DNA of 63,409 nt, filler included, from Lenisia limosa (lineage: Eukaryota > Protista > Breviatea), in NCBI GenBank assembly GCA_001655205.1. It is 8 parts of 8 records of this genome, joined end to end, with 100 filler letters (N's around TTAATTAATTAA, not from the genome) between each part and the next. Parts side by side here need not be neighbours in the genome. Positions count along the whole stretch, not along the records: positions 30,836 to 39,267 come from LPNZ01006471.1; positions 39,368 to 42,216 come from LPNZ01006822.1; positions 42,317 to 45,637 come from LPNZ01002551.1; positions 45,738 to 51,641 come from LPNZ01007513.1; positions 51,742 to 62,063 come from LPNZ01000883.1; positions 62,164 to 63,409 come from LPNZ01002646.1; 2 more parts are not named here. One strand, given 5' to 3'. Every line of letters starts with the position of its first letter. Position 1 is the stretch's first letter. The position numbers and the translations under genes are program-made. This document shows positions 10,553 through 63,207 of this stretch, in pieces. The notes under the pieces were generated by a model. That model saw only the letters and a program-made list of their open reading frames with translations, was not told the DNA's origin and searched no databases.

Positions 10553-10562
10553 CNNNNNNNNN

Positions 10563-34160: not shown

Positions 34161-36870
34161 ATGAGCGCAGTCGATAAGGCAGGTGCCGCCAAGGAGAAGG
34201 GCGACCAGATGGTTGCCAAACTGAGCGAAGGCGACAGTGGGGGGGGGGGGGGNNNNNNNNNNNNNNNNNNNNNNNNNNNNNNNNNNNNNNNNNNNNNNNN
34301 NNNNNNNNNNNNNNNNNNNNNNNNNNNNNNNNTGTCTGGGATTTAAGTATAAAAGGTTGTTGTAATAGAGATTGATGTGATTTTGAAATCACGTTGATTG
34401 AATTTGAATCATTCCACTCTCACGATATAATGTAGTACATATAATTCTACGTTTGGGATCAAACTAACATTTTTGCATAATATTCTGGTTACTATTTTAA
34501 CCCCGTAGAGCTAGGAACTGAACTTCCTGAGCCAGTCCAGAGATACTGCCCGATGTGCGGAATTTGCTGCATTTGGATCACCATCATCCTGATCATGTCA
34601 TCGTGTGGGTTTATTTGATGATTATGACTTTGTTTTATTATTTTCTTTGCTAACAGAGCTGTCCGGGGGGGGGGGATATTTCAGAAGTTTTCCATTTTTA
34701 CTNNNNNNNNNNNNNNNNNNNNNNNNNNNNNNNNNNNNNNNNNNNNNNNNNNNNNNNNNNNNNNNNNNNNNNNNNNNNNNNNNNNNNNNNNNNNNNNNTT
34801 CTACTCCGAGGAGTACATGGACGAGGGCAAGTTGAAGGTCGGGAGGCAGTCCGAACAAACTTCTGACTACAATGACGACTATGAAAAGTTCTACAACCGA
34901 TTCAACCTTTTCGTATGCGGGAGGATGCCACAGTTGGCCTTTTTTTTATTACCTTTCGCCGATACTTTCACCACAATCGAAAGATTAATCTAAAAATGGA
35001 TACTGTCATTAGGGCTTCACTTCAGGCCGAAAAATACCGGGGAAATATCGATAGCTTTCGAGGATTTATCGAGAAATTCAAACCAAAGTGAAGCCCTAAC
35101 TATCATACGATTATGGTGAGAGTATTCTCATGCTACACTAAAGCCGAAGTAATCCAGTATCCTCTTTCCACAGCTCACCCTTCCAGTTCTACCTTGCCTA
35201 CCTCCCGCTACTCTTTTCGGTGGTCGCCACTTTAGCCCGTGCCGTGGAGCTGGTTTACGTTCTCATCAAGTCCATTCCCCTTGCCGGTGACTATGTGCGA
35301 CGGAAGTATTTGACTAAACTTTGGGGTTTACCATTTGCTCGATTCTCAGTGTGATATTATAGAGATAAGAAGTAAAACAGGTTGTATCTGGTCAAAGCCG
35401 TCCACACCATCACGATTATTAGAGATATTGAATTATAGTATAATATCAGTTCAGCTAATCATTTACATTACAACTTTGTGCACTCCTCGGCATAAGACAT
35501 GATACCATCAGATCGGACAACTCTGATTCTTACCATTTAGTTTGGCGGCATGATTTCCTCCAAGCTCTGCAGACTTTGTTCTCTCTGTTGCCTTGCCTCA
35601 ATCTTTGTACTCAGTCTTCTCTTCTTCTCGTGAGTAGTTTTCTCTCTTTTGCTTTAATTTGGTTCAATTCGTCTCAGCCGGTCAAGTGTGGAAGCACTGT
35701 TGTGAATTTAAGCCAGGCTTTTTTTTTTGTGCCGAGGTGAAGCTGTGGTTAATTCCTTTTACCAAAATCACCATCCATCCACCTTCAAATCACTCACATT
35801 GACCAGAAGAACGCACACTCCACTCACATTCCAGACTTTTCCACACTGGAGCGTGTGAAAATGACTCGGACCCGAACACTGAAATCGACCTCTGTAGAGG
35901 TGGGATAGAACTCCAAGATATGATCCATTAATCTGTCTTCAACATGCTCTACCAAAATTTGTCAGCTGTCAAGGATGGATCATTAAAGAGGCAAACTTAT
36001 CACCTCGCTCACATATGATATATTATAATATTGTGAAAATTTCCTTTTATTATTTCAGATGCATTGGGCGACTCATTCTTCGGATCGAAAAACGAGGAGA
36101 ACTGGGAGGCGTCATGGGGTCCGTCAACTGGCTTCTTTGTTCTCCTCATGATGGTGTCATGTTGTATTCGTGAGGGAGGGTTACGGGTTTTGCTGCTGTT
36201 TTTTTCTCAATAATATCTAATAACCACCAGCTTAGCTTGTACATATGATACTATCATCTCATCCCCATCTTCACCATCCATACCCCTCCTCCTATCAATC
36301 CACAACCCAGCTATCATACCCCTCCTCCTATCAATCCACAACCCAGCTATCATACCACCTCCCCCTGAGGGCTTTGTTAGTTTTGTTGTTATCAAACCTC
36401 GTGTTTTGTTGGCCAACAGAGTTGATTCGGGCTTTTTTGTTTCATAAATTTTATTTACCCCCCTCCCCCCTTCGCTGGAGTGATGAGATGCGGTGCTGCA
36501 GAAGCTGGAGTGATGAGATGTGGTGCTGCAGAAGCTGGAGTGATGGGATGCGGTGCTGCAGAAGCTGGAGTGATGAGATGCGGTGCTGCAGAAGCTGGAG
36601 TGATGGNNNNNNNNNNNNNNNNNNNNNNNNNNNNNNNNNNNNNNNNNNNNNNNNNNNNNNNNNNNNNNNNNNNNNNNNNNNNNNNNNNNNNNNNNNNNNN
36701 NNNNNNNNNNNNNNNNNNNNNNNNNNNNNNNNNNNNNNNNNNNNNNNNNNNNNNNNNNNNNNNNNNNNNNNNNNNNNNNNNNNNNNNNNNNNNNNNNNNN
36801 NNNNNNNNNNNNNNNNNNCCCGGATGAGGTTGAAGCACCGGCAGCTGCAGCCCCTGCGGCTAAGGCTTAG
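34161..36870 (+). CDS. Hypothetical multi-pass membrane protein with Ala/Glu-rich tail
   Basis: Exons YSEEYMDEGK, SPFQFYLAYLPLLFSVVATLARAVELVYVLIKSIPLA, NWEASWGPSTGFFVLLMMVS; ends PDEVEAPAAAAPAAKA with TAG at 36868-36870. Confidence 0.6.
35010..35098. mobile_element. MITE family A copy
   Basis: TA-GGGCTTCACTTC...AAAGTGAAGCCC-TA with conserved core. Confidence 0.88.
36474..36606. repeat. 30-bp minisatellite (at least 4 copies, runs into N gap)
   Basis: Unit GCTGGAGTGATGAGATGCGGTGCTGCAGAA. Confidence 0.95.
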
Positions 36871-36961
36871 TTCATCTGTTCATGTGGGTGTTATGGGGTT
36901 AGTTATATGGGGTAATGTACTGTTTGCGGATGTTCAACAGAGGTACTGCATTTATTACTTC

Positions 36962-37051
36962 TAGAGCTTCACTTCGGTTCAAAAAAGACCGGTAAAAAAT
37001 CGTGGTTTATCGAGAAATTCAGTCTTTTTTTCAAACAGAAGTGAAGCCTTA
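36962..37051. mobile_element. MITE family A copy between convergent genes
   Basis: TA-GAGCTTCACTTCGG...GAAGTGAAGCCT-TA. Confidence 0.85.
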
Positions 37052-37092
37052 TTACTTCGTTGATTCGCCTCATTGTATTTGATGTTAAGCAA

Positions 37093-39130
37093 TTAAATAC
37101 ATGAAACAGGAAACGATACAAAACTATTCTTGGGACTCCTCAGGGGTCTAAAACAGTCAACATAATTCCAAAGAGACTTTATCTTTATGATCCAGGTTTC
37201 AATAGAGACTTCAATGCAAAAAAAAAAAACAAAAAAAACACTCACGGNNNNNNNNNNNNNNNNNNNNNNNNNNNNNNNNNNNNNNNNNNNNNNNNNNNNN
37301 NNNNNNNNNNNNNNNNNGGCCGCACGGCAAACGGGGCACTTATCATCGAGGTTGACAACACACTCATGGCAGACGCAAATGTGGCGACACGGCAGCAGGA
37401 GGGCATTTCGAGGCTCACTTAGACAGACCTGTGGGGGAGTAAAATTTGAAAATTTATAAAACAAAATATCATATACAAATAAACTCTGTTGGTTAAATGT
37501 GCGAGAGTTGAAAACAACAATGCACAGGGGGAGGGGTGACAGCTTTTTTCTATGTGAGTAAAATCTATAATCTATTGTGTTTTTTATGCTTCTTCATCCA
37601 CCAACCATGCATTCCTCTTCCTCGCCTTCGGCATCCTTTTCAAGCCCAAAGATATCCTAAAGCGGTCATTTTCAGCCTTCAGGGCGTTCTCAAATGGGCA
37701 TTCTTTGTAACCAATTTGATTAAAAAAAAATAGACAAATTGACAATTCAACGTTTATACAAAAGACAAATAAATGACACACAGCGTCCCACCTCGACATT
37801 GAAGGTGGCGCTATGTGTGAACGCAACCCTTCGTAGCACCCTTCCCTCTTCGGGCATCCCATCCGGGCCTAAGTAGGGCGTACCTGGGGTGTTAAATAAG
37901 CCGACAGAGGAGCGCCCTCACGTCACATTAGTTGCACGTGAACATTGAAACAGCACAGTAACAATACAGTGATATACAATCGGTATAGATGAGAGCATAG
38001 CATAGCAATCGAATTTGTTCTGATAGATGTGTGATGATCTTCAGCCAAAGATGAGTGGTGCCATGATAATAAATGAGATTAATGCTAGTTGGGCAGGGGG
38101 GTACACTAGGGCTTCACTTCGGTTCCAAAAAGATCGGTAAAAATATCGATAGTTTTTCAGGATTTATCGAGATATTTTGTCTTTTTTTCCGAAGTGAAGC
38201 CCTACTCACAACCAAGCCCACTTCTGGAGTCATCAACTTCAGTTGCCTGTGAGTCCGACGACAAAGCCCGGGTTCTCCCAGGTTCCATTGGGGGTATCAC
38301 GGGGCCCTTGCCGGAAAGTAGTGTGAGCATGGATTGGTCCTCTGTAAAAATTAGATATAGATGCGAAATAAAACAAGTTTGTATCTGGCCAAAGCCGTCC
38401 GCTGATAAGATATTGAATTATAGTAGCATATTAGAAGTATTAACCAAGAAAAGGGTATGTTGGGTGTATTAATGATAAATTCAACAAATAGGCAAGTCAG
38501 CCACAGCAGGAGCCGAATAGGAGTAAACTCATATTTACATGTAATACAACTTAGCATTCAGTGTGCCTCCTCAGAATACTAGTCCAAAATGTGGCAAACA
38601 AGAAAGTAATGAGTGCTAATCCTCCGTCCTTTACAACTTTCCATTGCATGAGAATATAATACCCTCACAGCTTACTGGTCCAAATAGCAAAAACAATGGG
38701 GACTTTGTCATCACGAGGGAGCCAATCAAGGGAAAAGGCCGAATATGCCCGGCACGGGAGAGCGGCGGGCCCTCGGGGGGTGTTTTCATCATTGGGCTGG
38801 ACGGTGCCGCGGATATAGGCTGGAATATTACGAATAGATAGTACAATTCAATGACTCAACAAGCGATATGACTTAATCTTTCCATTTGTGATACAACTGA
38901 TTGGCAGACACAATAAAACTCCAACACACTTGTGACTGATCTTAATCTCAACACTGAAATCGGCTATCCGTTCTCTTGCCGATACTAGTAAACATATTAA
39001 CTTGCCTAAACCTCAAAGCCTTGAAATGTCCCATCATACCAGGGGGAAGAGCCAATCCAAGTGTGGTATTACCGGGCAATATTGAGACTGCTGCGGTTGA
39101 GTACTTGAAATCTGCCAGATTAAAACAACG
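37093..39130 (-). CDS. RING-HC (zf-C3HC4_3, MGRN1/IAP-type) E3 ligase-like protein, partial
   Basis: VCLSEPRNALLLPCRHICVCHECVVNLDDKCPVCRAA at about 37318-37428; upstream Pro/Ser-rich exons on the same strand. Confidence 0.8.
38107..38204. mobile_element. MITE family A full copy
   Basis: TA-GGGCTTCACTTCGG...CCGAAGTGAAGCCC-TA. Confidence 0.9.
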
Positions 39131-39419: not shown

Positions 39420-40120
39420 GGGAGAAGCTTACCAAATCAAATGGAAGAGGGTTGTCATGATGAGTACCCCAGACAAGTTTTCTGCAAGATTTTATTTGCT
39501 GTGCTCAGTTTCTCCTCAGGTTATTATTGTACTCTAGTTTTGTGTAAAAGAGGGGGAGGGGAGAGCGGAGACAAATAAAAAGGGCTACTGGATTGAAATA
39601 CATATATCGAATTTTATCGACGGTTTAACCTTTCCTCCCATGGTTTCCTCCCCAGAAAAAGCCAACGTCTGAAGAACTAATCATAAATGAGGTAAATTTA
39701 ACGAAAGAGATACTTTTTAACAGGCAGAATTGCGAACAGAAATCCAGTTTGTGGGTTCTGTTGATATATCGTTCCTTCCAATCTCTCTGAGATTGATTAT
39801 GACTTATTTTTGAACATTACTATTTTTAAGTGACCCGTAGGTGGAAAAATACCTTTCCTCCCATCCACCATAACGATCTTGGCTGTTTGAGCCTTGTTTC
39901 TTAGAATTTCAAGGAGTTATCTGGATCTTTTGCTCTTGCTGTGCATTATTGGTGTTGTGGGAGTTAACAGTTATTGATTTGGATATTTTGTGTACCGTTC
40001 GGTGCGTACGCTTGCTGGGGTCCACTCAACGGCTTTGGTGTAGTTATTAGGATTTGTTGCGGGTGTGTTTATGGATATGCGTTTGTTGGTTTGTGTGCTG
40101 TCTGTATGCGGTAGTTGTTG
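39420..40120 (-). CDS. Hypothetical protein fragments, divergent from WRAP73
   Basis: Exon-like segments RDWKERYINRTHKLDFCSQFCLLK, VGFFWEETMGGKVKPSIKFDI; full model not resolved. Confidence 0.3.
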
Positions 40121-40205
40121 TTGTAAAAATTAAGTATCATTCTTATTTCAAAAAAGGTTGAAAGAATGTAAGATGATCTTTAGTCTTTGACTGTTTTAGG
40201 GAACA

Positions 40206-42010
40206 ATGGACTTTAGTGAAAGCTTTGTGCATAGTGATCTCAATTTAGTCGAATGGAGTCCCAGTGGTAAGCTTAAATTTCTTTGTTTTTAAGACACCAT
40301 ATTATTTTTGTTGCATTACTGAGTTTACCTTAGTTAGCGTCAATGAACCATTAAAGGGGTTTATGCAATAGTATTAATAATACTGGCCAAAGCCTTTATA
40401 AATACGAGTCATCGTTTATAATATTGTAGGTGAGTTTGTAGCGTCGATTGAAGGACACCGAGTGGTTGTGCGGGAGAGGGAGTCTCTGGCGCTCATTGCA
40501 CTGTTTATTGCAGTTGACAAGATCGACCATCTGGAATGGTCTCCTGAGAGTGAGGTAAGGACTAGGGCAACTCCAGTCACAAAAAAGACCAATAAAATAT
40601 CGACATTTTTCTAGGATTACTCGACAGTTCAGTAGTAAAAAGTGAGAGTGACCATCCAATAGAGTGAGCAAGCGACACCTTATTATAGCATATGATATCC
40701 TTGTATGAGCATATCCTTGTATTATTGACGATTAGTATAACCATAACCTTGTATTTAACAACAATTAGCATATCCTAGTCGGATGCTTCCAAAGAGGAAT
40801 CTGCCACATCTTTTCATTGGAGGACAAAGACAAATCCGCCTCAATTGATGAAGTTGGAAGGGTGGTCTTTTTTGCTCAAGCAAGAAAATAGATTAAGTAT
40901 ATACTATCATATATATTCTTGGGATTTAGGGCTTCACTTCGGTTCGAAAAAATTCTCGATAAATCTTCGAAAATTATCGATATTTTACCGGGAACTGAAG
41001 TGAAGCCCTCAGAATAACACATTGAGATATCAGAACGAAATTACATCATTCACCTCGTATGCTTTGTGCAACGCATTCATGTGATAATCAGCTATATAAA
41101 TGATAAAATGTTTTTAGTTCAGTTTGAACATCATCACAACACAGGGAGCCTTAGGGATGAAATGGTGCGGTTTCATTGGAGCGGCTGACAAGCTCTACAC
41201 GGTTACTGACCATAACGTTTGCTGGCGGCTTTGATTTGTAAACCGATACTACATTAAGATTGGATATGAGGTATCATATCACTCTGTGGAAAATGATAGT
41301 TCAGTGAACCAAAAAGTGATATGATAGTTCACACGTATGTGATATATCCAAAAATATAAAATATTATTCCTCTTAGATGAGAATTAGCATTTGGGACCTC
41401 TCTAACGGCGATGCCAAGTTCTTACCGCACCCCAAGGGCACCAAAGACAGATGTGGGTGTGGATGATGTAAAGATAGATGTGGGTGTGGATGATGTAACA
41501 GTTATTCACAATTATTGATATTGATAACAGATCAGTTACTAAGATTTTTGACTCTACAGCTGTGATTGATATTATTGCCCATGTCACCCCCATCAGGTAT
41601 TGCAACTAGGGTTTCCCTATGGTCCGAAAAAGACCGTGAAAATATCGATATTCATGAGGATATATTGAGAAATGCAATCTTTTTTTTTTTGCGACCGTAG
41701 GGAAGCCCTAATTTCAACCAACAATGACACTACATTTATTTATTAACAATTCATAATTATTATCAGTTATTCATCATTTTTAATACATTGACAATTATTT
41801 GCAATTATCATCAGGTACATAGGTCTTTGTTTGTTTTGGTGTTATCAACCCTTGTGTGTTGTCAGCCAACTTTTTGATTCATAATTTTTCCAATTTTACT
41901 CCCCATCAGGTATTGCAACCAGCAGAGACGGCCACATTGCCTTCATCCACCGTCAAGATGCCAAGGACTCCCTGGTTGTCGTTGACTCTCGTCACATGGA
42001 AGTTATCAGC
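40206..42010 (+). CDS. WRAP73: WD40 protein WRAP73/WDR8 (centrosome/basal body), 3' truncated at contig end
   Basis: MDFSESFVHSDLNLVEWSPSG...ASIEGHRVVVRERESLALIALFIAVDKIDHLEWSPES...FQRGICHIFSLEDKDKSASIDE-GALGM...VTDHN-MRISIWDLSNG...PHPK, colinear with the WRAP73 N-terminus as I recall it. Confidence 0.85.
40927..41010. mobile_element. MITE family A copy, WRAP73 intron
   Basis: TA-GGGCTTCACTTCGG...CTGAAGTGAAGCCC-TC. Confidence 0.85.
41607..41710. mobile_element. MITE family A copy (CCTACGG subfamily), WRAP73 intron
   Basis: TA-GGGTTTCCCTATGGTC...GACCGTAGGGAAGCCC-TA. Confidence 0.88.
41822..41909 (+). repeat. Introner-like repeat copy ending at a WRAP73 acceptor
   Basis: GGTCTTTGTTTGTTTTGGTGTTATCAACCCTTGTGTGTTGTCAGCCAAC...AATTTTACTCCCCATCAG. 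Confidence 0.75.
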
Positions 42011-42419
42011 GTAGGGTCTGGTATTTTTGCAGTAAATTTCTATTGAAACTAAGATCCGGCTGTTGAACTGTCTGGCAAAGGGCTTCACTCAGGTCCCCAA
42101 CTGACCGGTAAAATATTAAAGTTTATCTAGGATTAAGCAAGCAGTCAGACATTTTCATCACCGAAGCATCTCTATATGGTACTATATTGATTCGTCTTTT
42201 GTTTTCAATTTTGCTTNNNNNNNNNNNNNNNNNNNNNNNNNNNNNNNNNNNNNNNNNNNNTTAATTAATTAANNNNNNNNNNNNNNNNNNNNNNNNNNNN
42301 NNNNNNNNNNNNNNNNTGGTGGTGGGGAAGAAAATTGACAATTTTCTAAAAAACACAATAGTGATAGAAAAGAGAAAATTAATGAAAAAGAATCCAACCG
42401 CCTCCCACTTGGTCGGCTA

Positions 42420-45230
42420 AGGTCCAATTTATGTTTGACGTCTTCCATAGTATCATCACAATGAAACGTCCTCGGAATTGGCGTGCAAAACTCCCCCAAA
42501 CGAAAGAGAACGTCGATATTCGGCGACTCAACATACTCCTGAATCCCATAGCGCTTGAAGAGCTTCGTGTAATCATAAGGCTTGTTACTAGGGGGTTTCG
42601 GTGGATTTTCGGGGGAGGGCGGCGGTGTTGGTTCATTGACAAGATGTGGGGATACGGAGGGGGAAGGAGGGGACTCTGGAAGCTTGTTCAGTACAAATAC
42701 ACCATTTTCCTTTTGCATAGTATAGCCTTCATGAAAGGCTTTTAGCTGCATTTTCTTCAGGACGGCCATTTGTTCCTCGAGATCAACGTCCTCAATAGCA
42801 GGACACTCCTGGTCACTTCTGGCCGCAACGTCCTCATCAATCTGAGCAGGTTTACTTGGCACGGACGGAGTGCTTGCGACTTTTGCCAATACCTGAAGCC
42901 CGGCCCCTTTTGTAGGCGGACCCATCAGGAAATGTACCGCATCTGCGCTTTCTGCGGGATTGGGAATCCCTTTAAACGTAGGGCACTCAGAGTAAAAACG
43001 GTGTTCATCGTTGTTAACGTTACGACTGCGATGGTTGCTTCCGTCACAACCGCTTTCGCAGTCACTGTTGCACTCGCCATATACCATGGCCTGCAGAATT
43101 CCCTTTTTTTGGGCAAACTCGCCGAAAAGCGGGTCAAAACTCTTCTGGAAAAGATCGTTGTTAGGCCCTCCAGTTAAAGTCAAACACGCGACACCTTCGT
43201 AAGACTTCGGCTCGGCAGGGCCTCGTTCTCGTCTTAGCTTTGCCGGCGTGATAATCGAAAACCGTTCAGCATCGGAGTCACGTGCCTCATGCGACCGTGG
43301 CGACTTCACTTCCGACGAGCCTTCTGACACGTATTCGGCCGATGAGCACGTGGATTCATCGAGACTTGAAGACTTAATTAGGCTCGGAATGTCGGCATAG
43401 GGACAGACTTCGGGCTGGGGGGTGGGGGTAAAAATGAGAAAATTATGAAGCAAAATAAGCCCAAAATCAACTCTGTTGGCTAGCAACACACACGGGTGAA
43501 AACGTTATTTCATATATACATCGATACAATACTGTTGTTGTATTTAGCCGATTCAAATTACCCCCGCCACCGAAAGAGAAGGAGAAGACTCAACTATGTA
43601 GTCATCGAAGTTCCTCTTCTTCAGGCAAGCTAAAAGTCTGGGTGGGGGGTGTGAGTCAAAAGAAACTTATGAAAAAAAAAAAAAAAAATCCAGAATCCTC
43701 CCCCCCTTTTTTTATTAACTCTGCCCCCTTCCTCCTTCATTATACCAAGGGCTTCACTTCGGTTCGAAAAACTGAATTTCTCGATAAATCTTTGAAAATT
43801 ATCGATAATTATACCGGTTTTTTTCGCATCGAAGTGACGCCCTAATGATACCCCACCAACACTCCAAGTGTGACGTTTTGAGTCAGCTGGACTTCCAGGG
43901 GGCTGTCTTCCCTACACCAAGTTAAACGGGAGGAGGGGGGGGGGGGNNNNNNNNNNNNNNNNNNNNNNNNNNNNNNNNNNNNNNNNNNNNNNNNNNNNNN
44001 NNNNNNNNNNNNNNNNNNNNNNNNNNNNNNNNNNNNNNNNNNNNNNNNNNNNNNNNNNNNNNNNNNNNNNNNNNNNNNNNNNNNNNNNNNNNNNNNNNNN
44101 NNNNNNNNNNNNNNNNNNNNNNNNNNNNNNNNNNNNNNNNNNNNNNNNNNNNNNNNNNNNNNNNNNNNNNNNNNNNNNNNNNNNNNNNNNNNNNNNNNNN
44201 NNNNNNNNNNNNNNNNNNNNNNNNNNNTACTAGTTGATGTGCGTGGCAGTTCGTAGTTAATAACTTGCTCCTGTTATTATTATTAATTTTTTGATGCCAA
44301 CTCTCTCCTATCGAGTTTCGGAGCAGTGTGAAGCTTTACTAAACCCCCAAGGACCAGTAGTGAGATGGCGGACCTCTAAGAAGGGCTTCCATTGCTCCTG
44401 CTTCTCGTCTCTTCCCCCAATGATGACACCAGTCAATTGCAACCATGCTTATGCAGATTTTGCTGCTGCAGTCGACTATTAAAACTGGTGGCACATCCAG
44501 AAATGAAGATCACTGATCTACCTAATAAAAGGTGGGGGGTTCTTGTCAGGATTTATATCTACTGTCTTTTGGGGCAGCGTGGGTTGGAATATTCAATTTC
44601 ATTGACTGCAAAGAAGAGAAAGAAGGTACAGAGAAACTGACAGAGAACTCGCAATACCATGTTTGTGTTGATGCTTCAGAAGATGACAAAGCTCCCTGTT
44701 ATTCAGCTTCAATGACTTTTATCTATTATTCTGTTGTATTTGAAACAGAATTATTTTTGCTGTAAAGCAACTGAAAAGTCTGTTGTGGGGAGGCTTGCAC
44801 AAAGCATCAACGCTGCCGGTGGTGTCAAAATCTACACAACCGGGAGACACACTGCTTAAAGCCCGTGGTAATCAGCCCTCATAATGACCGTGAAACCCGC
44901 AAAGCGTGATCCACTACACCACTACATGCCGTCGTATTCTGTTACATCTTGACCGATTTGATATTGGATCTCCGTAATATAAAGAGGCAAGGTTATAATG
45001 TTTCTTTGAGTCTTCATAACATAAAACCGCCGGAACAGTAAGCCATAGATTTTTGGTCGAACACAGTCCAAAAAGAAACTGAGGTATCGAAAACTGAACC
45101 AAAAAAAAGAGAATGCCGCCAATACCTACAATAATACCTTGCCCTCCTCACTGGTACAATTCGAAGTCGTCGAAGTTTTCGATTGCGGTCTCAACTTCAT
45201 CAATAATACACTCAACCTGCAAAAGGTAAA
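42420..45230 (-). CDS. Hypothetical protein with a ~1-kb Pro/Ser-rich exon, partial
   Basis: Open exon about 42420-43414 after a CCCCCAG acceptor (PEVCPYADIPS...PPSPENPPKPP...); upstream exons VECIIDEVETAIENFDDFELY, FFLDCVRPKIYGLLFRR. Confidence 0.6.
43747..43844. mobile_element. MITE family A copy
   Basis: AA-GGGCTTCACTTCGG...TCGAAGTGACGCCC-TA. Confidence 0.85.
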
Positions 45231-45407
45231 ATAAGAAGTAGAAATAAGAAGTAAAAGAAGGGGATATCTGGCCAAAGCCGCCCACATCATCACTCATCTA
45301 TTGGTAGTATCTCGCTTATATGCAGAAGTACAAACTAAAACAAGGTAGGATCTGGTCATTGACCACATAAAGTGCATTATTTTCCCCTTGTACAAAGCAA
45401 TATAAAC

Positions 45408-45609
45408 TAGGACTTCACTTCAGTCCGAAAAAGACCGAAAAAATATCGATAGCTTTCGCAGATTTATGAAAGATTATTTTCAAACAGAAGAAGCCATTGC
45501 AATAAACATCAGTATTGTAACACTTCGGGCTTCACTTCGGTCAGAAAAAGACCGAGAATATAGCAAAAGTTTTCGATAATTCAGTCCTTTTGAACGAAGC
45601 GAAGCACTA
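45408..45609. mobile_element. Two adjacent degenerate MITE family A copies (about 45408-45497 and 45525-45609)
   Basis: Both begin GG(A/G)CTTCACTTC(A/G)GTC.GAAAAAGACCGA. Confidence 0.75.
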
Positions 45610-45759
45610 ATAGCATCCATTGTACAAAAGAACACAGNNNNNNNNNNNNNNNNNNNNNNNNNNNNNNNNNNNNNNNNNNNNTTAATTAATTAANNNNNNN
45701 NNNNNNNNNNNNNNNNNNNNNNNNNNNNNNNNNNNNNAAGAAACCCACGTTTAGGTAAT

Positions 45760-47066
45760 TGATGCCATCCAACCCCCCTCCAACGTTTGATGTTTGAAAT
45801 CGGCTTCGTATGTGAGTGAATGTGGCTATCTCCGCCGGTCTTCTACAAATATTAGAGAGTTGCGTAAATAGGTGGACATTAGCAAAAGAAAAAATAAGTA
45901 ATTTGATAAAGTTGAGAAGTAAATAGCCAGGAATGGAACCTTGTTGAAAACCTTGACTTGACCCATTATATATCATACCTTGACCTGCTCCGTTATATGT
46001 ATAGATAAATACCTTGGCTTGGACCGATATATCATACCTTGACTTGGCCCGTTATATGGCCGAAAAGCTCATCAGGACTTAGGCCGTAAGGAACTTCCAA
46101 CTTCTCAACTGAGGTTGCTGGAGGGGGGAGGGGGTAATGAGGTAAGTGATTTGTTTTTATAAAACCTAAAATAAACCATGTTGGCTGACAACACACAACA
46201 GTTGATGACAACAAAACAACCTGGCCAGCATACGTGATGGGAAAACAGGTGACAATTAAATTGAAGGAGTGGAGGGTTATTTGACAATAGTTGTACAATT
46301 CAATATCAAATGGGGNNNNNNNNNNNNNNNNNNNNNNNNNNNNNNNNNNNNNNNNNNNNNNNNNNNNNNNNNNNNNNNNNNNNNNNNNNNNNNNNNNNNN
46401 NNNNNCATCGACAATGGTAACCTGGGAGGTAATAAATAAAAAAAGGTTTGGGGGGGGGGGTACAGTTGGATATATTTGATTATGATGAAGGCTTCCCTAC
46501 GGTACTTAAAAGACTGGCAAAACTTCGATGTTTTTAGGATTTATCGAGAAATTCAGTCTTTTTTAGGACCTTTAATCCCAAATATGATAGTGAGGATTAA
46601 CACTGACGCGATAATTCCTGACACGGATAATAAAATTTAATGAAACAAAACAAAAAAAAAAAAAGCCTAAAATTGGTGAAGTAAAGAAAATTCCGAAGAA
46701 TTTTGAATTAAAACCTATTTCATAGTTAACCAACTTTTGATGAGAGCACTGCAGCAACAGAACAAAGGCAGGACTTGTCTGGAATTGTCAGTCTTAAGCA
46801 AAGGCTAAAAACCAGTACTATGAAGGGCTAAAATTATTAATTAGTACTATGGAAGTGTTGTGATATGTAGTTTTATGATCGAGCTAATGTAATCCCGACA
46901 AAGTTCCATATTATCACCCAACTAGAGTTTCATTTTCGGTTCCAAAAGACCGACAAAATATCGATATTTATAGAGAATTCAGTCTTTTTTGGGACCGAAA
47001 GTGAAGCTCAACACCTAAGAATTAATCAATCATTCCAATATACACACCCGCTTCTCCTCCACCTCC

Positions 47067-47110
<44 letters not shown>

Positions 47111-50100
47111 AAACAAAAAAAATCATACATAAATATGTAATGCCCCAACAAAGTAAACCGCCACGCCCAAACAAAGTAGCCCCAAATACAAAGTAGCCCG
47201 GAAGGCGGCAGGGTGCCGACAGACACGGCATAAGCCAAGACGCCCTCAACCCAGGCCGGGTCAACATTGTGCGTGGCCAGGGGGGCAATGTGGGGCGGCA
47301 TCGGGGTGTTTTCTGTGAGGAATTGGTTACGTGTTACGGATACAGAACAATATGAAAATGTGATATTAGGCGCTTATAGAAGTTGGTTCAAAGACCTTGT
47401 AGCTATATACAATGACTGGTATAGTCTTGACCTATTTTCTTTGGGAAACCACATAACAAGTCGGTCAAGACTTTCCCTGTCAATGTGTGTATGTGCTTAA
47501 TGCAAGGATCTTACTCCCTAAAATAGACCGACAACCACATACACTCAATCCCACACTAATACCGTACCCACCCTGTGTCCCCTTAAGCTCGGGCCAAAAA
47601 CACGCGGTCAAACTGTCGATAAGGAGAGGTACTGTGGTTTCGTCTATTCTCGGATACTGGGTGCGTGAAATGGAACTACTGACAGTGTACCTATTTATGA
47701 GCAAGAATAAATATGAAATAAATCGTGGGGAACAAATAACTTAACCCTCTAAAAGTCACTCTTGAAAAATTAAGTATTATTATAAACATACCTCAACATT
47801 GCCTTTCCATTGGGCCAAATTGACCGAATCTCCGGAGGTGCAATGTTGCAAGCCACCTGGGGGGTACAATTAGAAAATTTATGAAGCAAAAAAAGGTCCA
47901 AAAAATCAACTCCGTGGGCTGACAACACACAAGGATTAATAACAACAAAACAAANNNNNNNNNNNNNNNNNNNNNNNNNNNNNNNNNNNNNNNNNNNNNN
48001 NNNNNNNNNNNNNNNNNNNNNNNNNNNNNNNNNNNNNNNNNNNNNNNNNNNNNNNNNNNNNNNNTCACTCCAGCGAACATAAAATTGAAAATTTAATAAA
48101 CACAAAAAGGCCCAAAATCATAAGGTCCCCCTTTACCCGAAGGAGATGCGTTACTCCCAGATTCCACCAGAGGAGTCGTCATAATAGGCGGATAGAGAAT
48201 GGCCGAACAGGCAAGGTAGGCTGGGGGGTTACATTTATATTTATATTTTTTGTTTTTTGTTTTATATGGTTTTTATTATTTGTTTTTTTATTTTATTTTA
48301 TAATTTTGATATGATAGTATAAAACTGGGTGGATACGATGAGGTGAAATACGGGTACCCCCGCCCTCTCCCAACCCATTGACAATTCAACCAGCTCCTTG
48401 GAAAGCCCTTGATTGACCCTGGCGTTTTTGCTCTGTGGAAGTGAGGCAAACAGAATACACGGAAAAAATAAATGATTATGGTGTTTATTCAAGAAGTGGT
48501 GGTATTACCTGAAAAACAAAAAAAGAAACATATGATAAATGTATATGGATGTTAATGAAGGGAAAAAAATATAGTAGCTATATCTTATTATATCATTTTG
48601 TTTTTTTCACTTTTCGACGAAGATACTATACCGAATGGAGTATAATCGGAGGATAGCTGTTAGTCATTATTCTATTAGTTGCATGTAGCCTATAATTGCT
48701 GTTTCAGCAATTAAAATTCAATCTACTAAATATATTGATCACAAAGGGNNNNNNNNNNNNNNNNNNNNNNNNNNNNNNNNNNNNNNNNNNNNNNNNNNNN
48801 TGCAATTTGAGATTTGTGAGCATCTGGCCAATTTGGTAGGTAATAGCAAATAGAGAAGCATCATTGGAGTCGTACACTTCTCCTGTAGGGTCAAATAACT
48901 TCATTGATCCTTTGAAAAAAAAAAAAAAAAAAANNNNNNNNNNNNNNNNNNNNNNNNNNNNNNNNNNNNNNNNNNNNNNNNNNNNNNNNNNNNNNNNTAA
49001 ATAAATGCAAATATATTATTCAGAAAGCAATTGATTTGTTTTGATAAATATGTTATTAGTAAAGAAATGTTAACCCAAAAGAATGAGAAACAAAATAAGA
49101 TATGATCGGAGTATAAATATAAAAATAATCATAGCATTAAAAATACCATATAATCAAAAGAGGACTACGAAAAATCATTTCAAAATTACAAATAATGAGA
49201 ACAAACGCAACTCTCTAATTAACCCCAACCCTCAAACCATTGACAAGACAGGCCGAAATAAAAGGGATGACCCTTGCACAGAGTTCATTAGTAGTGAGAA
49301 ATCCTGGATTGTGAGGAAATTATTAATTTATCGTTGTGGTTAGAAAAAAGATGAATTTTTCGATAAATCTTCAATAACTTTCGATATTGTAACTACGTAA
49401 GTGGTGACAGTAATTATTATGACTATCGCATTAATGACCGACCCGGCCCTAAACTCATACATATCCGATACTACTCTGCGCAAGAGGGTCATTTATGAAG
49501 ATATATAGCTATGATAAATAAATAAAAAATAAGGTAGTATCTGGCCGCTATTAAGATATTTTGAATTGTATAATAATAATTCACCCAATCATTTTTTTAC
49601 ACCACTATCCCAAAAATATAATAATCTGTCACTCAACCCTCCACTACCAAAAAACGATCATCACCTCCCTCAATTACCCCCTCACCATGCACCATCAACA
49701 TCCTTTTTAACACATCTCGGGCTTCAGAGGTCTTGACTGAAAACGAATCCAGCGGACCCTCATAAGTAGGACCCGGGGGGAGGGTCAGAACTGACCGGCC
49801 GAAACTCTCAACCTTGGGAAGGGGTTATAAATGGACAATGTATGAAACACAAAAAGCCCTTGAACAAAAACAAGGCTTTTCGTCTTCTCCCACGATTATT
49901 TCATCTTCTTTTTACAAAGAGCGAAACGCCAAATACCCCAATTACCACAGAAAACAGTCTTGAAGCCTCTGTGCCTTCCAGGGAATTCCGCATTAGGAAC
50001 ACTTCAGTCGACTTTTCTACCCTGTCCGTAACAGGGCAAAAGGGGACCGTTCGCCGAAGCCACGACTCGGTAGTACCACCAATGGCCATAATGAGGCCGC

Positions 50101-51640
50101 CCTGATAGGATGAGGGGACTATGTTTTTCATTAAAGGTATTAATTAATGTGGTTATATTTTCTGGAAAAAAAAAAAATGATCTTTGCACTTTCTACAAAC
50201 ATCTCCCCCGCGCACCCTTAAGGTATTAAGTACTGAGATGAGATTAGGGCTCCGTGTAATTAATTGAAAAAATAATTGCAAATTTTTAAGCGGGGCATCT
50301 ATTGTAACCAAAAACCTTTATCAAACACTTTAATTCCAAATTTTATCAATTAATTTATAATTTTGTCAATTATTGTCTTCATAAAATAATATACGTAGAC
50401 TTAGATTCTATTATATCATCTCCAATACAGCAGCCACTCCCTCCATAATCCGCCTCACTTTGGCGATTCGCATTCTGCGGTCTGTGAAGGTCACAGTTGC
50501 TGCCCCGGCAAGAGAAGCTGCTCGTACGCCTTCAACTAAGGGGGGGGGGNNNNNNNNNNNNNNNNNNNNNNNNNNNNNNNNNNNNNNNNNNNNNNNNNNN
50601 NNNNNNNNNNNNNNNNNNNNNNNNNNNNNNNNNNNNNNNNNNNNNNNNNNNNNNNNNNNNNNNGTAAGAATGGGTGCTTCCGTATAATGCTGCCAAGGGC
50701 AATGATACAAAATTCAAAATTAGGAGATATAGCAACTCCTCTTCCCCCACTCCCTTCGCCCACACAAAGCTGCTACATGGGGATAGAGGTTCGGTACAAG
50801 GTGGAGGGACAGTAAAATGGCAAAACCGCCCGTGACGATAACGGCTTCGAGTTTTCGAAGTAAAGTATGGTCGGGAAGGTCGCACTGAATGAATGATTTT
50901 ATGAAACAAACAATAAGTCCACAAACAGCCCAAAATAAAAAAATAAGCCCAAATGTGAGAAGAAGGAGGGTTAGGTCGAAGATAACAAATGGGTTGAAAG
51001 GTGAAGGGAGTGTGAATATAGTGTATAAGTGCAGAAGGATGGCCGGACATGACACACTAAACGCGACAAGTATGCATGGAGTGATGGAAAAGTGACAAGT
51101 ATGCATGAAGTGATGCGAAAGTTTCGAGAAAATGATACCTATCTCCCTCAACCCTATCCCTGTGTATTTCAATCCTCAAGTATTACCAGTTTTTAACCCT
51201 CCTCGCTATCTATTTTATTTTGTCATATTGTATTGACCTAAAAAAACGACCGCACACAGAGCAGTCAATAACAACAGTCTTCCGCGACAATAGAGCACCG
51301 AAGGCGGTAACAGCGTTTATGACGGACGATTCGGTAGTGAAACTGCCCGGGGGGAGGCCAGGGCGGCTCAGGTCTGGGGTGAGATGTTAAAATTGGAAAA
51401 TTAATAAAAACAAAAAAAAAATCCCAAAATCAACTCTGTTAGCTGACAACACAAGAGGGTTTAAAGCAACAGTTCAACCATTTTCTATATTGTTGCTGCA
51501 TTATTGTTGAATTTGAATTTGGTGGAAAACTGTGCATATGTAAGTTGCATATATCCCAGTATACCATCGGAGTCACACATGCCTGCAGAGACAACGTACT
51601 TGAGGGATGTGGGGAATGAGGAAGAGGCTCGACCCTCGGT
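45760..51640 (-). CDS. Large hypothetical protein(s) spanning contig 6, both ends partial
   Basis: Minus-strand GT-AG exons, e.g. DLSRPGLPPGSFTTESSVINAVTAFGALLSRK, VESFGRSVLTLPPGPTYEGPLDSFSVKTSEARD, ENTPMPPHIAPLATHNVDPAWVEGVLAYAVSVG. Confidence 0.55.
46118..46220 (-). mobile_element. Introner-like repeat: entire 103-nt intron
   Basis: Sense: GTTGTTTTGTTGTCATCAACTGTTGTGTGTTGTCAGCCAACATGG...TTACCCCTCCCCCCTCCAG, flanked by coding exons. Confidence 0.6.
46488..47010. mobile_element. Two separate degenerate MITE family A copies (about 46488-46579 and 46923-47010)
   Basis: GGCTTCCCTACGG...TTTATCGAGAAATTCAGTC and TAGAGTTTCATTTTCGG...CCGAAAGTGAAGCTC. Confidence 0.75.
47066..47110. repeat. (CAA)n microsatellite, intronic
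   Basis: About 15 perfect CAA units. Confidence 0.95.
47857..47954 (-). repeat. Introner-like repeat copy ending at an acceptor
   Basis: Sense: TTTGTTTTGTTGTTATTAATCCTTGTGTGTTGTCAGCCCACGGAGTTGATTTTTTGG...TTCATAAATTTTCTAATTGTACCCCCCAG. Further copies at 36369-36475(+), 37429-37500(-), 43415-43497(-), 51374-51470(-), 63044-63133(+). Confidence 0.75.
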
Positions 51641-57600: not shown

Positions 57601-57687
57601 CATTGGTTAAGAACGCGTCGAAAATGCATCCAAGTTAGCTCCTTCTCTGCTGCTGCAGCTAGCTCCTGCTCACCTCCTCGAACAGCG

Positions 57688-58250
57688 ACTTTACATTGAC
57701 CCTCTTCAAGGAGTTAAAGGTTCGCCTACATTGTCAGATAAAGACCAGGAGATGATGTTCAAGCATTGTACCCGATGTAAATCAATAATGCCGAAATCAT
57801 TCTCACCTTTCAGAACAACTCCGAGCTCCGTGAGGTCTTTGGGGAACTGTATAGGACCTTGGGCTCTTCATTCTCTGGGACACAGCTTCTGACTTGCGTT
57901 CCGGCAGGTGAACTGAAGCGAGCCAACGAGGTTATCCAGCCTTTCCTTAGGTATATTACTGTAAGGTATCATATGATATTTGATTAAAAGGCATGAATAA
58001 GGCTGATAAGTCTTCAATCTGTGTATTTCAATAAAGCAAGCACTTTCCTAATAAGGAAAGTATGTTTTCTCATATTATTAGTGTGGATTACCCTTATTGT
58101 TTTATTATTATTGTTTTTTCAAGATTTTTTGTGAATTAAAATCATCCACACAGGACTATCAACGACATCCTCCCTGACATTGAGTCTCTCCAAATCCAGC
58201 AGGCCCTGTCCTATCTGCCGCGCCATCTATCAGGCCCCCCACCCTCGCTG
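57688..58250 (+). CDS. Hypothetical protein, 3' exons
   Basis: DFTLTLFKELK-NNSELRE-LLTCVPAGELKRANEVIQPFLR-TINDILPDIESLQIQQALSYLPRHLSGPHPR*, TGA at 58248-58250. Confidence 0.45.
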
Positions 58251-58409
58251 ACGCCAAGCATCACCATATTGATTAATCATATACGTATGGAAACGATCAT
58301 GTCAGACTATGTGGATATTTTAGCATATTTGGATTGGTATATCATTATCAAATCTGAAGTCAGAAGATAACAGAATATGACACCCCCGAAACAATAAATA
58401 ATGTAATAT

Positions 58410-60275
58410 ACCTTCAACATTCAATGACTTCAATGTGAACCCGGTTCTGGTAGATTACTTCATGACCACCCGAGCCATAAAAGCGTGAGAGACTCCGCCC
58501 CAAATCGTTAGAAGATATGAGAAAGTCAGCTCAACACCAACTAGGTTCCTCTGCAAAACATATTCCATGCATCGGCAAGGTATTTCTAAAACAGTCAGTA
58601 AAATTGATTAATACAAACCTTCTGAACAGTAGCTGGGTCAGAAGGAAGATTTCTTGACCTCTTTCAAAAAGTTACCCCGGGTCCCAGTATAAATTTTCTT
58701 GAAATTATAAGAAAATTATCAATTTGGTCATTATTTGGCTAATATGGTACAGGCCGGGAGATTGTAGCCCTTCAAAGGGCAGTTTCCAAAGTAAAACCCT
58801 TTCAATCTCATTTGTCTTAAATTGTTTTTTAATGTTTTATAAGATTGTTTTAGGTAAGAGGTGTGTCCTTCCCGATCCCCTGTTTTTGAAAATACCTTTG
58901 CCTTATCAATGTTCTACCATTTGACACAGTAGTGTGCGCTTTTCTTCACATGAGCCTGACATTTTGACTGAAATTACCAACAAAGGAAAATTCGAGAATT
59001 TTGGTAATTCAGTCAAAATGTCAGGCTTCATATCTGGAGCCTACTAACGCCATTTTAACATCTGATTCGACCATTTTAAGGGTTTTGGGGGTCAGACTTT
59101 CTGTTTCTAACGTCATTATAAGTTTTAAAGGGTTGTCAGAAGAGAAAAGGCTGTTTTGTAGACTTTCAAAGCCCTATTTTCCTAATTAGGCAAGTAAGGA
59201 ACTTTCTGGAACTTTCGGGGTCCGAATCACAAAAATATCGCAAAAGTTATGAAACTTCCACAAACTTAATTCCAAATTTGAGAACATCCCAAAATAACAA
59301 AAAGAGCAAGATTTTTGAACTGATTATTTCAGAAAATGACCCCGGGCGCCCGGCCCGGAGTGCCAATTTTCCTGCAATTTGTGTGAAATTTTACATGTGG
59401 TCATTATTTCGTATTTCTATTGGTTTTTATTGATGTCCAAGTTTTTTGAGACAAATTATTCAAAAAGTTTATAAAAATATCGGGATTTTTTTGGGTTTTA
59501 TAGGGTTTAGCCGTTCATGCATATTATATTATTGAGCATATATCGATATATTCAAATACAAATCACATATCATAAAAAAGGGGGTTCTATATGAATATAA
59601 AATCTCGGTAACCTGAATTCTTAAAAATTTCTATTTTCCAATCTTTTGTTGAGTGAAATAAAGCATTCTATTATGTTCTTATTGGCAACAGTATTATTAC
59701 AATAAGGAATGCACAAACACAAATTCAAGAACACAACATAATAATAGAATAAATAGAATGTGATACATGCCTGACAAATCCATTCTCATCTGGAATGCCA
59801 AAATTTTTAAACCAACCAGTGTCGGCTTTTGCGACTTTCAGGTGTGATGAGGCATTGGGTGCTCAGAATGACTCAGGGAGTTCCTCTAATATAGTTATTT
59901 CACAACACTCCTACGATTTTCATTCTCATTGCGGAGGTGATAATCCACACAACGGGACTCCTGCTGATGACAGACAAAGGCTTAACCATGCCGCCTTCCA
60001 ATTTTTAAAAGAGCTTTGTTCAACAAGATAAACGATTGACCCACCGTCATCCAATGGCAAATTTAAATTTTTCAGCCTCATATTGGCTGTTCTCTAACTC
60101 ACAGTGGTATCCATGAAGAGTACCATGAGGAGATACATAGGTGCATTTTGTGTTTACTATTACCTTGACGTCCTTAAATCTGGCTCCCTTGAAACTTGAC
60201 AGTGAAATGGAATGGGTCAGGTGTGAGGATATGGAAGGGAGTTGGGAATTGGTTGGAGGAGACCCTTTTTTCATG
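58410..60275 (-). CDS. Possible hypothetical gene or pseudogene fragments
   Basis: Exon-like segments NLPSDPATVQK-KYLADAWNMFCRG and HLKVAKADTGWFKNFGIPDENGFVRH; no clean model. Confidence 0.25.
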
Positions 60276-60562
60276 ATGTTTTGTTAAGAAGCAGGTAAAA
60301 AAGTGCTAATTAGCAAGAGGGAGATGCGAAGGGAAATAGAGAAAGAGGTAAAAAGGGAAAGATGGAAAAGATCAAGGGGTTTGTTTAATTTCGGCCGCTC
60401 CCGTTCCAGTCAAAATAACTCTGACCGGATACAAGTATTTAAGGCGGCGTACAGCCGCGCAAAGTTTAAATGAGCCGGATACAAGGTTTCGGCTGAAACG
60501 AGTCGAGTGTGGTGCAGGTGTGGTGTCCAATTTGGCAGGGCTTTGTCAGGGTTTTGTTTCAA

Positions 60563-61483
<921 letters not shown>

Positions 61484-61856
61484 GTGATTGATTGCCTTAT
61501 TGTGACTATTTTGAAAACAGTTCTTAAATTTAAGACTCTTGAAATATTTTTGTTATTGTTGGGCGAACTGTGTTAAATGTTATTGAATTTCTCTTCCGAC
61601 TATTTTATTCATTGACGCACAGTATAGAAACTCTTCTTGTAATTTTTTATTGTCTCTTCTTCCAACTCTTCTGTTCATTATAGAACAATGCCTCAGATTC
61701 GTTTTTTTTTGACGTAAAATATGAGTATTTTTTGTGTGTCCTTGCTTCTGGGTTGCCTCTTAGTATTATCTCCTTCGAGGATGTCATCAATATTTACGAT
61801 AATAATATTCTATCAAGCCTTTGGTGTTCTCTATCTCTCTGGCAGCTCCTGAATCC

Positions 61857-62063
61857 GTGGCGCAAGACAGATTGAGGAAGGCCAACCTGGTATGTATTAT
61901 GTAGGGGCTTTTATCCTTATTCATGAATTTTATCCTTGTAGGTATGATGGGGAGGCACATAGAAGGCTGTGTGTACAGAGTTGTATGGCAAATGATTGGT
62001 GAAGTAATTATTTTCCAATATCTCTTTAAAGCGTGATGGTGTGGACGGCTTTAATATAGATAT
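61857..62063 (+). repeat. Hairpin-bearing repeat, long copy at end of contig 7
   Basis: GTGGCGCAAGACAGATTGAGG...CCTTGTAGGTATG...GCACATAGAAGGCTGTGTGT...GGCAAATGATTGG...GTGATGGTGTGGACGGCTTT. Confidence 0.8.
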
Positions 62064-62251
62064 NNNNNNNNNNNNNNNNNNNNNNNNNNNNNNNNNNNNN
62101 NNNNNNNTTAATTAATTAANNNNNNNNNNNNNNNNNNNNNNNNNNNNNNNNNNNNNNNNNNNNCCCCCCCCCCCCATTATTCGGTTCGTGATTATTACCC
62201 TTACGCCAATATTCTTGATCAAAATTTCCTTCGTTTTACCCCTTCCCCCAG

Positions 62252-63207
62252 GTTCAGCGCATGGAGACAGTACAGGCCGAGCGGCAGGAGCATGAGGCTC
62301 GAGGCACCGCGACGGGCTTTGATAGTGGGGGGATTGGTTGGTTCATGGAAGTTCCGTTTTTACTCTCAACTTGCACTAGGGCTTCACTTCGGGTCGAAAA
62401 AGACCGTTATAATATCGATAGTTTTCGAGGATTTTCGAGAAATTCAGTCTTTTTTTTTTTGAACCCTTAAAGCACCCTCGCGGTGTTTTTCTCAATTGTG
62501 CCTTCAGAGTTGTTTATTTGTTCCATATAGGGCCTCACTTCGGTTCGAAAAAGACTGAATTTCTCGATAAATCCTTGAAAACTATCGATATTATAACGGT
62601 CTTTTTCGACCCGAAGTGAAGCCCTAGTTCTATATATTTCCGAAGCTTACGCCCGCAGTTCCTATCGACCTCAATGACGTGGACGTCCCCGAGGAATCCA
62701 GCGAAAATATCGAGAGGATGTTGACGCTGAACGAAGAGCCAGGTGGGAGGAGTATAATGAGTGAGACTTTCTTACTAGGGCTCCGTGCTGTTAATTTTTT
62801 GAAGAAATATATTGATAAAATTAGAAATTAAAGTGTCTGAAATTGCGTTCCCGTGACAATAGGTCTCACGTCAGATATTTAATAATTGCATGGAGCCCTA
62901 TTATGTATTACGATTGGAAAAAGACCGATAAAATCTCTATTTATCGAGGATTCCAAAATAAGACGGAATTTCTCGATAAATCCTCGATAAATATCGATAT
63001 TTCACTGGTCTTTTCGGACCGTAGGAAGTCTTAGTACTGGCCTGGACTTTGTTTGTTTTGCTGTTTTGTTGTCAGCTAACAGGGCTTTTTTTGTTTGTTC
63101 CATACATTTTTTAATTTTACCCCCCCCCCTCAGAACCAGTAGAAAAGGAGGAGGCTGCTGAAGCTGCTCCAATAGCCGTTACCACTGAGGGGCAATCCGC
63201 GTTCAGA
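62252..63207 (+). CDS. Hypothetical acidic protein, internal exons
   Basis: VQRMETVQAERQEHEARGTATGFD / IPIDLNDVDVPEESSENIERMLTLNEEP / EPVEKEEAAEAAPIAVTTEGQSAFR, phase-consistent GT-AG. Confidence 0.55.
62377..62626. mobile_element. Inverted pair of MITE family A copies (62377-62469 and 62528-62626) in one intron
   Basis: The second copy is complete; the first is nearly identical to its reverse complement. Confidence 0.9.
62776..62900. mobile_element. MITE family B (related TIR, different core)
   Basis: TA-GGGCTCCGTGC...GCATGGAGCCC-TA; a second left end TAGGGCTCCGTG at 50245. Confidence 0.75.

Follow-up and report, generated by a model that had tools for sequence, protein, structure and literature searches.

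A stretch of genomic DNA from the breviate Lenisia limosa (63,409 nucleotides [nt] of assembly GCA_001655205.1, made of eight contigs joined by spacers and referred to below as the window) raises the question of how the same short sequence came to lie at the 3' ends of introns in unrelated genes of this intron-rich eukaryote. A preliminary description of the window had listed eight copies of this repeat, here called family A, and proposed that they are introners, i.e., mobile elements that create or supply spliceosomal introns. Our analysis points to a different answer, to which we assign a probability of about 55%: family A is a non-autonomous mobile element of ~150 nt that inserts in the last ~10 bases of existing introns and is probably copied from intron RNA.

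Profiles built with one copy left out at a time recovered all eight held-out copies, at 26.8 to 59.6 bits, on the strands and at the places originally given and on five contigs. The shuffle ceilings were 9.4 bits (50 block-shuffled windows) and 10.0 bits (30 dinucleotide-shuffled windows). The similarity therefore does not reduce to T-rich composition, a doubt raised when the repeat was first described, since the copies score far above composition-matched shuffles. Pairwise identity averages 70% and ranges from 55 to 88% (28 pairs). We also identified three further copies (4223, 16251, and 36471), each cut by assembly gaps. All 11 family A copies lie at, or are stacked toward, an intron 3' end and are in sense orientation, a count that describes the window rather than the genome and includes copies whose acceptor is not visible.

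Two sequencing runs from a common study were consulted: the DNA run X1, in which 94% of sampled words from 41000-50900 were present and from which the window itself may derive, and the poly(A) RNA run X2, in which 5% were present. X1, X2, and the window are not mutually independent. At copy 43415, 1,348 X1 contigs aligned, with a summed depth of ~9e4 compared with 26 in the flanking exon; at copy 51374, the summed depth was 1.5e5 compared with ~25. The resulting ratios (~3,500 and ~6,000, respectively) are not a copy number as such, and together with the density in the window (11 copies per 60 kb) they indicate that the genome holds roughly thousands of family A copies. High copy number, the profiles, and an RNA junction described below thus support the earlier view of a mobile, sense-oriented, acceptor-anchored repeat. 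Exact-match scans of metagenome contigs with a 28-nt core motif and of viral contigs with a 25-nt 5' motif found nothing, which rules out only near-identical relatives in those collections.

The copies and their decayed relatives are listed below; family B is a second repeat, treated further on, and MITE stands for miniature inverted-repeat transposable element.

4223..4267, plus strand: family A, 5' part only, placed by overlaps; runs into the gap 4268-4497 and lies directly behind an AG-less family B tail; donor at 4178
16129..16251, minus strand: family A, placed by overlaps and split by the gap 16145-16214 into the 5' part and then the C-run and AG
36366..36470, plus strand: family A, found by profile, 5'-truncated, with a C-tract before it and ending in a C-tract without AG
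36471..36606, plus strand: family A with a full-length 5' end, stacked on copy 36366..36470 and running into the gap 36607-36818
37429..37526, minus strand: family A at an acceptor that leads into a RING (zf-C3HC4_3) exon, an AG-less older C-tract directly upstream; likely donor 37605
41822..41909, plus strand: family A at the 3' end of intron 41453-41909 (phase 1, profile codon 138), whose acceptor precedes a WRAP73 exon
43415..43503, minus strand: family A, here the last ~90 nt of the 156-nt GT-AG intron 43415-43570, which is proven by RNA
46118..46231, minus strand: family A at an acceptor, not a whole intron; donor probably in the gap 46316-46405
47857..48077, minus strand: family A with a full-length 5' end (48065-48077), a gap (47955-48064), and the 3' part; likely donor 48136
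51374..51472, minus strand: family A at an acceptor, 5'-truncated
63035..63133, plus strand: family A at an acceptor, a MITE directly upstream; likely donor 62743
49816..49871, minus strand: decayed family A 3' part that scores 18.6 bits, more than any shuffle, at a likely acceptor
16513..16571, minus strand: decayed family A 3' part that scores 17.3 bits, more than any shuffle, at a likely acceptor
43638..43691, minus strand: weak A-like tail, 8.6 bits (within the shuffle range), at the RNA-supported acceptor of intron 43638-43860

The looser, 3'-only versions of the repeat that had been reported alongside the eight copies proved to be a mixture. The site at 16515-16560 is the decayed family A copy scoring 17.3 bits, and that at 48066-48120 combines an old tail with the 5' end of the copy at 47857. 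The sites at 2440-2501, 12489-12560, and 62190-62251 belong to family B, and the one at 46575-46680 was reported by neither profile at an E value of ≤10.

Sense orientation and acceptor position have outside support at three of the eight listed copies. At 43415, an X2 RNA contig (277 nt, depth 6.9, 0 mismatches) joins 43571 to 43414, skipping the 156-nt GT-AG intron; the loose end of the contig matches the next exon from 43861, and the frame is open across both junctions. This proof of splicing consists of one contig from one study, so that precise splicing-out, one of the properties expected of introners, was observed in one intron; another such property, similar sequences in introns of unrelated genes, was found. 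At 37429, the exon after the AG encodes a Pfam RING domain. At 41822, the flanking exons are contiguous in the WRAP73 profile (115-136 and 138-171), and spliced alignment puts the intron at 41453-41909. For the copies at 46118, 47857, 51374, and 63044, the assignment follows from an open frame and a step in GC content after the AG; X2 RNA contigs do not cover the exons of 45738-51641 and are uninformative on splicing there. The copy at 36369 has no AG of its own, and the acceptor once sought near its end gives way at 36471 to the 5' end of another copy. Host direction at two of the gap-cut copies is backed by neighboring exons, namely, a G-patch exon by Pfam at 4111-4176 (plus strand) for copy 4223 and ELMO exons further down the stretch on the minus strand, by eye in the same gene, for copy 16251. 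In two sets of exon pieces, 22 of 26 and 3 of 6 had no Pfam match below an E value of 0.001.

Family A occupies only the 3' part of its introns. The RNA-proven intron 43415-43570 begins with a non-element donor and 67 unrelated nt, and in the six introns measured, 44 to 366 nt of unrelated sequence precede the repeat. The first 45 nt of eight element-bearing introns aligned no better than shuffled sequence (19.1 versus 19.4), and the region from -89 to -45 relative to the AG (7 copies) aligned well above it (40.1 versus 21.0). Ordinary introns, represented by 33 hand-picked examples from two contigs, have a median length of 63 nt and a branch-like A ~10 nt from the AG; once the element is subtracted, what remains at 43415, 4223, and 48077 is about as long as an ordinary intron. 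The case in which 46118-46220 was taken to be a whole intron does not hold up. The 95 nt upstream contain no AG except at the claimed donor, the sole frame-compatible reading has two stops, and the claimed donor falls inside the 5' part of family A itself. Introner calls in two published surveys need similarity up to both intron ends and discard secondary insertions into pre-existing introns (PMC12130899, PMC9860276). Because both surveys demand similarity at both boundaries, family A, with unrelated intron 5' ends and an RNA-proven intron that it only partly fills, falls outside the introners.

The idea that the repeat carries its own acceptor is likewise unsupported. The last 4 to 6 bases differ among copies and displaced older tails are mostly AG-less, so that, judged from the sequence, the AG looks borrowed from the host. 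A run of four or more C residues within the last 20 nt is present in 3/33 ordinary introns; such runs being rare there, the C-run mostly travels with the element and is not a universal target.

The age of one host intron was assessed with the WRAP73 profile, aligned across introns in 80 fetched loci. A position of 138 in phase 1 occurred in none, 137.0 in two, and 138.0 in one; in 44 of the 80 loci the region is intronless, and the remaining 36 mostly have introns at 41 and 204 only. A predicted intron in locus L076 was rejected as an artefact of a partial locus. Two gene models hint that the introns are old: a fungal model (P0106) loses residues 139-165, breaking right after 138, and a shark isoform breaks at 113/114, which is the neighboring, element-free intron. 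The human gene presumably has a boundary at 138, phase 1. Homologs were collected with a HMMER search that gave 4 matches, of which P0001 was dropped as a repetitive false match; a word-based search with the 42-amino-acid WRAP73 exon returned nothing.

Several landing sites preserve what appears to have been there before. An older, AG-less intron tail lies directly upstream of family A at five sites (4225, 16252, 36470, 37527, and 48078). The tail upstream of copy 16129..16251 is itself A-like (~16252-16300), and copy 47857..48077 is stacked behind one at 48078-48120. AG-less old tails are what would be expected of an element that splits an old acceptor downstream of its branch point but ahead of its AG and then takes over that AG. 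The site at 36365 is ambiguous in this respect, and four sites have no such tail or are interrupted by a MITE. The WRAP73 intron contains an additional, possible trace of insertion:

41588..41609, plus strand: 22-nt duplicate of the acceptor/exon junction at 41901-41922 of WRAP73

Nine nucleotides of this junction appear once more at 41809-41817, 4 nt ahead of copy 41822, and are a candidate target-site duplication. At the other eight of nine junctions, matches are short (3 to 4 nt) or no longer than those with the acceptors of other copies; duplications of a C-run are indistinguishable from tails.

The unit is longer than the ~105 nt first proposed. Overlapping gap-cut fragments add ~45 nt on the 5' side, giving ~150 nt; their order was taken from pairwise overlaps, since MAFFT misplaced these fragments. 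They chain through overlaps of 17/17, 22/23, 13/13, and 17/19 identical positions, and the loose-end consensus of both runs agrees. The 3' end is fixed: T-rich sequence leads to a branch-like TTTTAC and then to a C-run, after which come 4 to 6 variable bases that end in AG. At the 5' side the copies are ragged, and two of them share an identical full-length start. A fixed 3' end, a simple-sequence tail, and 5' truncation, by which target-primed retroposons are recognized, are thus all present, the tail being a C-run and not poly(A). The sense strand of copy 36369 contains four T-runs of 4 or more, and the antisense strand contains none.

Other identities were considered for this unit. No terminal inverted repeats (TIRs) were found in 36360-36510, and none join the ends of copy 41822, there being no gap-free full-length copy to examine; in these stretches the reported absence of obvious TIRs is confirmed, and a MITE or other TIR DNA transposon was rejected. 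A conserved hairpin was rejected, as two of eight copies fold better than shuffles (z = -2.0 and -2.8) with structures that differ and the other six have z-scores of -0.4 to +1.8. Rfam gave no match in the whole window at curated thresholds and nine chance-level matches in 36340-36606 (E values of 1.8 to 9.4). A short interspersed nuclear element (SINE) with a polymerase III head derived from transfer RNA (tRNA), 7SL, or 5S is not indicated, given the lack of an Rfam match and the sense T-runs; the A and B boxes were assessed by eye only. Box C/D small nucleolar RNA (snoRNA), or a retroposon of one, likewise found no curated Rfam match and no conserved fold. Helitrons have 5'-TC and 3'-CTRR ends, insert between A and T, and carry a subterminal 3' hairpin; a Helitron was rejected, as no conserved hairpin and none of the expected ends were seen. 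An internal dimer was dismissed because 66 of 500 shuffles were equally good. At 36471-36606, a 30-nt unit from the 5' part of family A is repeated ~4.5 times in tandem and runs into the gap; slippage, template jumping, and an assembly artefact are candidate explanations.

Family A is not alone in its position. A 16-nt motif of family B occurs four times in the window compared with 0.09 expected, each time at a likely intron end and in sense, and two copies align over ~55 nt.

62176..62251, plus strand: family B, acceptor-anchored, with a C-run before it
12489..12545, minus strand: family B at a likely acceptor
9823..9860, minus strand: family B at a likely acceptor
4190..4222, plus strand: AG-less family B tail that a family A copy has displaced
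2440..2501, plus strand: diverged B-like tail at a likely acceptor, recognized by alignment only and missed by the 2-mismatch motif search

Since family A lies behind a family B tail at 4190-4267, B is older there. That a second family has the same habit argues that the habit belongs to the biology of the genome and not to one sequence.

Taken as an insertion into existing introns, family A would behave as follows. The element would land downstream of the host branch point but upstream of the AG, the host AG would be borrowed, and the element would supply the branch-point-like TTTTAC and the C-run, so that splicing survives. The template would be sense-strand intron RNA, either host precursor messenger RNA or excised intron; the sense T-runs would stop RNA polymerase III, which makes a host transcript the likely template. 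A reverse transcriptase acting in trans may prime at the C-rich 3' end of the RNA on a nick at another acceptor, and would often stop early. Copies landing in exons or in the middle of an intron would then be removed by selection. Tailless retropseudogenes are a known case in which short 3' complementarity, and no poly(A), serves for priming (PMC5322556).

Several observations weigh against this explanation. No reverse transcriptase or master copy was seen in the window, a genome-wide search not having been made. A clear target-site duplication is present at only one of nine junctions. So strict a targeting is not accounted for by the pairing of a few bases (CAG, for example) on its own, and one stacked pair in X1 keeps the AG on its upstream tail (other X1 pairs are ambiguous). 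The T-run-free antisense strand would also suit polymerase III transcription in the antisense direction. Nor does the model predict that element-bearing introns start G-richer than ordinary ones, with 5.1 versus 3.2 G in positions 3-14 (8 versus 33 introns, p = 0.006, a post hoc comparison of small sets from different contigs). Finally, the only large element-free stretch in the window, contig 51742-62063 (no family A, no MITE, GC content of 0.37), may originate from another organism, and it therefore provides no control for intergenic absence of family A. Donors followed by G-runs were noted at 4178, 37605, 41453, 43570, 48136, and 62743, as well as at 22049-22061, 34241-34252, and 63204-63218; the C-run near the 3' end of the intron is a possible pairing partner for G-rich intron starts.

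The priming model leaves the strict targeting partly unexplained, and a route linked to the spliceosome therefore keeps weight. Here the spliceosome itself would move the piece, the 3' end of an excised intron being reverse-spliced or ligated at another acceptor, either in RNA that is then reverse transcribed or in R-loop DNA. Such a route would explain the strict position and orientation and the habit common to the unrelated families A and B, it would account for the X1 pair with its upstream AG, and both the chemistry of lariat 3' tails and reverse splicing into R-loop DNA have been proposed (PMC10996645). However, joining at the exon boundary should import the AG of the element, with the old AG remaining upstream or the old tail being lost, whereas five sites keep an AG-less tail. 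The WRAP73 site duplicates intron and exon bases of the host together, as a staggered DNA cut would, and the full-length 5' start common to copies, which is not a donor, suggests a defined element. We regard this route as rather doubtful. Somewhat less speculative, although still tentative, is a broader reading in which "acceptor-homing" pieces form a class: intron 3' pieces would use excised intron RNA, the spliceosome, or an R-loop to overwrite the branch point and pyrimidine tract of other acceptors, with family B, then A, then A on A having swept thousands of introns, so that mobile DNA and not point mutation would rewrite 3' splice signals.

Spread at the DNA level without RNA, through a Helitron-like or other non-TIR element or through ectopic repair or gene conversion at similar intron tails, would be compatible with the lack of TIRs in the stretch examined, the mostly absent target-site duplications, the head-to-tail stacks, and the internal 30-nt tandem at 36471-36606. 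Why placement should be sense-only is left unexplained, the C-run that could seed homology is missing from most ordinary acceptors, and neither a conserved hairpin nor the Helitron ends were found; we consider such spread unlikely. Family A as a true introner, which created these introns before their 5' parts were replaced, extended, or diverged, is quite improbable. Its sense-only placement, lack of TIRs, and length of <200 nt recall the non-TIR introner class (PMC10996645), the WRAP73 position was matched in 0/80 loci, and the 5' part of the element contains a donor-like GT while element-bearing introns start G-rich. Against this stand the unrelated intron 5' ends, the failure of the 46118 whole-intron case, and the finding that none of the four copies reaching or nearing the 5' end adjoins an exon. 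The RNA-proven intron, moreover, has a non-element donor and a 67-nt front part of ordinary intron size, and the break in P0106 after 138 hints that this position is old. Within the window, the introner reading is largely refuted. Hardly credible is a sequence that is not mobile at all but a long conserved splicing signal, a structured intronic RNA or snoRNA, or T-rich composition. A C-box-like GTGATGA near the 5' end and weak C/D snoRNA matches (E values of 1.8 to 8.6) speak for it. The scores far above shuffles, the empty curated Rfam search, the lack of a conserved fold, the truncated and stacked copies, and the absence of a C-run tail from most hand-picked introns speak against it.

Insertion into existing intron ends has partial parallels in known systems. 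Introners (PMC12130899, PMC9860276; non-TIR class, PMC10996645) share with family A a short, non-coding repeat in gene-sense orientation in introns of unrelated genes, with no TIRs seen and one splice site possibly borrowed from the host. Unlike family A, which forms only the 3' part and stacks at one acceptor, they span donor to acceptor and create the intron. The canine merle SINE in PMEL is also a short retroelement at an intron/exon boundary, with a 15-bp duplication containing the acceptor, but it is one harmful locus, antisense, tRNA derived, and poly(A) tailed (PMC7349775). Family A has a family-wide habit, sense orientation, a C-run tail, and splicing kept at the sole RNA-tested site. 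As a model for priming, the tailless retropseudogenes of long interspersed nuclear element 1 (L1) are similar in having no poly(A) and 2 to 18 nt of target complementarity; unlike family A, they derive from tRNA, 5S, U2, and similar RNAs, use A-rich L1 sites, and have no tie to splice sites (PMC5322556). No parent RNA of this kind was found for family A in Rfam searches of the window. In Trypanosoma cruzi, the repeat SIRE supplies the trans-splice acceptor of some genes. That role is not mentioned in the part of PMC2323293 considered here. SIRE resembles family A as a non-autonomous protist repeat with ~2,200 copies (PMC12618653), but it concerns trans-splicing in few genes, occurs in many contexts, and is not pinned to the ends of cis-introns. 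A literature search that covered few subscription papers and no supplements of the introner surveys found no family described as fixed at the acceptors of cis-introns that already exist. Family A is likely a non-autonomous intronic mobile element whose targeting habit has no counterpart in the literature covered by that search.

Should the anchoring prove genome-wide, this element would have its safe harbor in the last ten bases ahead of the acceptor AG, a region in which insertions normally rank with the most dangerous. Wholesale replacement of 3' splice signals by transposition would then be possible, and thousands of natural events would be available for testing whether intron RNA or the spliceosome drives DNA insertion, an open question of intron gain. 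Introner surveys, which discard one-sided matches by design, would have a blind spot for such elements, and similarity among introns need not imply intron gain.

Other repeats were noted in the window. A palindromic MITE of ~90 to 100 nt occupies 23 sites on seven of the eight contigs, mostly intronic and TA-flanked in the best copies (for example, 31275-31371, 36964-37049, 38109-38203, 43749-43843, and 62530-62625), and is very abundant in X1. A dispersed intronic repeat with a motif around GGCCGAAGCCGTCCAC was recognized by eye at 14380-14410, 22969-22990, 31860-31900, 35375-35420, 38400-38440, and 49530-49560. The near-identical ~65-nt pair at 10485-10553 and 13135-13200 is possibly the end of another repeat. 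Intronic tandem duplications of 27 to 41 nt occur at 27790-28060, 24095-24220, 36280-36360, and 41443-41496, two of which copy the donor region.

Among the genes, exon pieces identified an MT-A70 methyltransferase at 6600-8570 (plus strand), a G-patch/RNA recognition motif protein at 2130-5335 (plus strand; G-patch by Pfam), which we take to resemble SPF45, an ELMO-domain protein at 13414-17380 (minus strand), and WRAP73 at 39950-42216 (plus strand). On the element-free contig 51742-62063, a kinase-like gene whose introns are very short lies near 60570-61500. Two stretches of ~120 nt, at 22790-22920 and 61890-62010 (both plus strand), are alike and lie on two contigs; this likeness would argue that the odd contig shares repeats or a paralog with the rest of the window.

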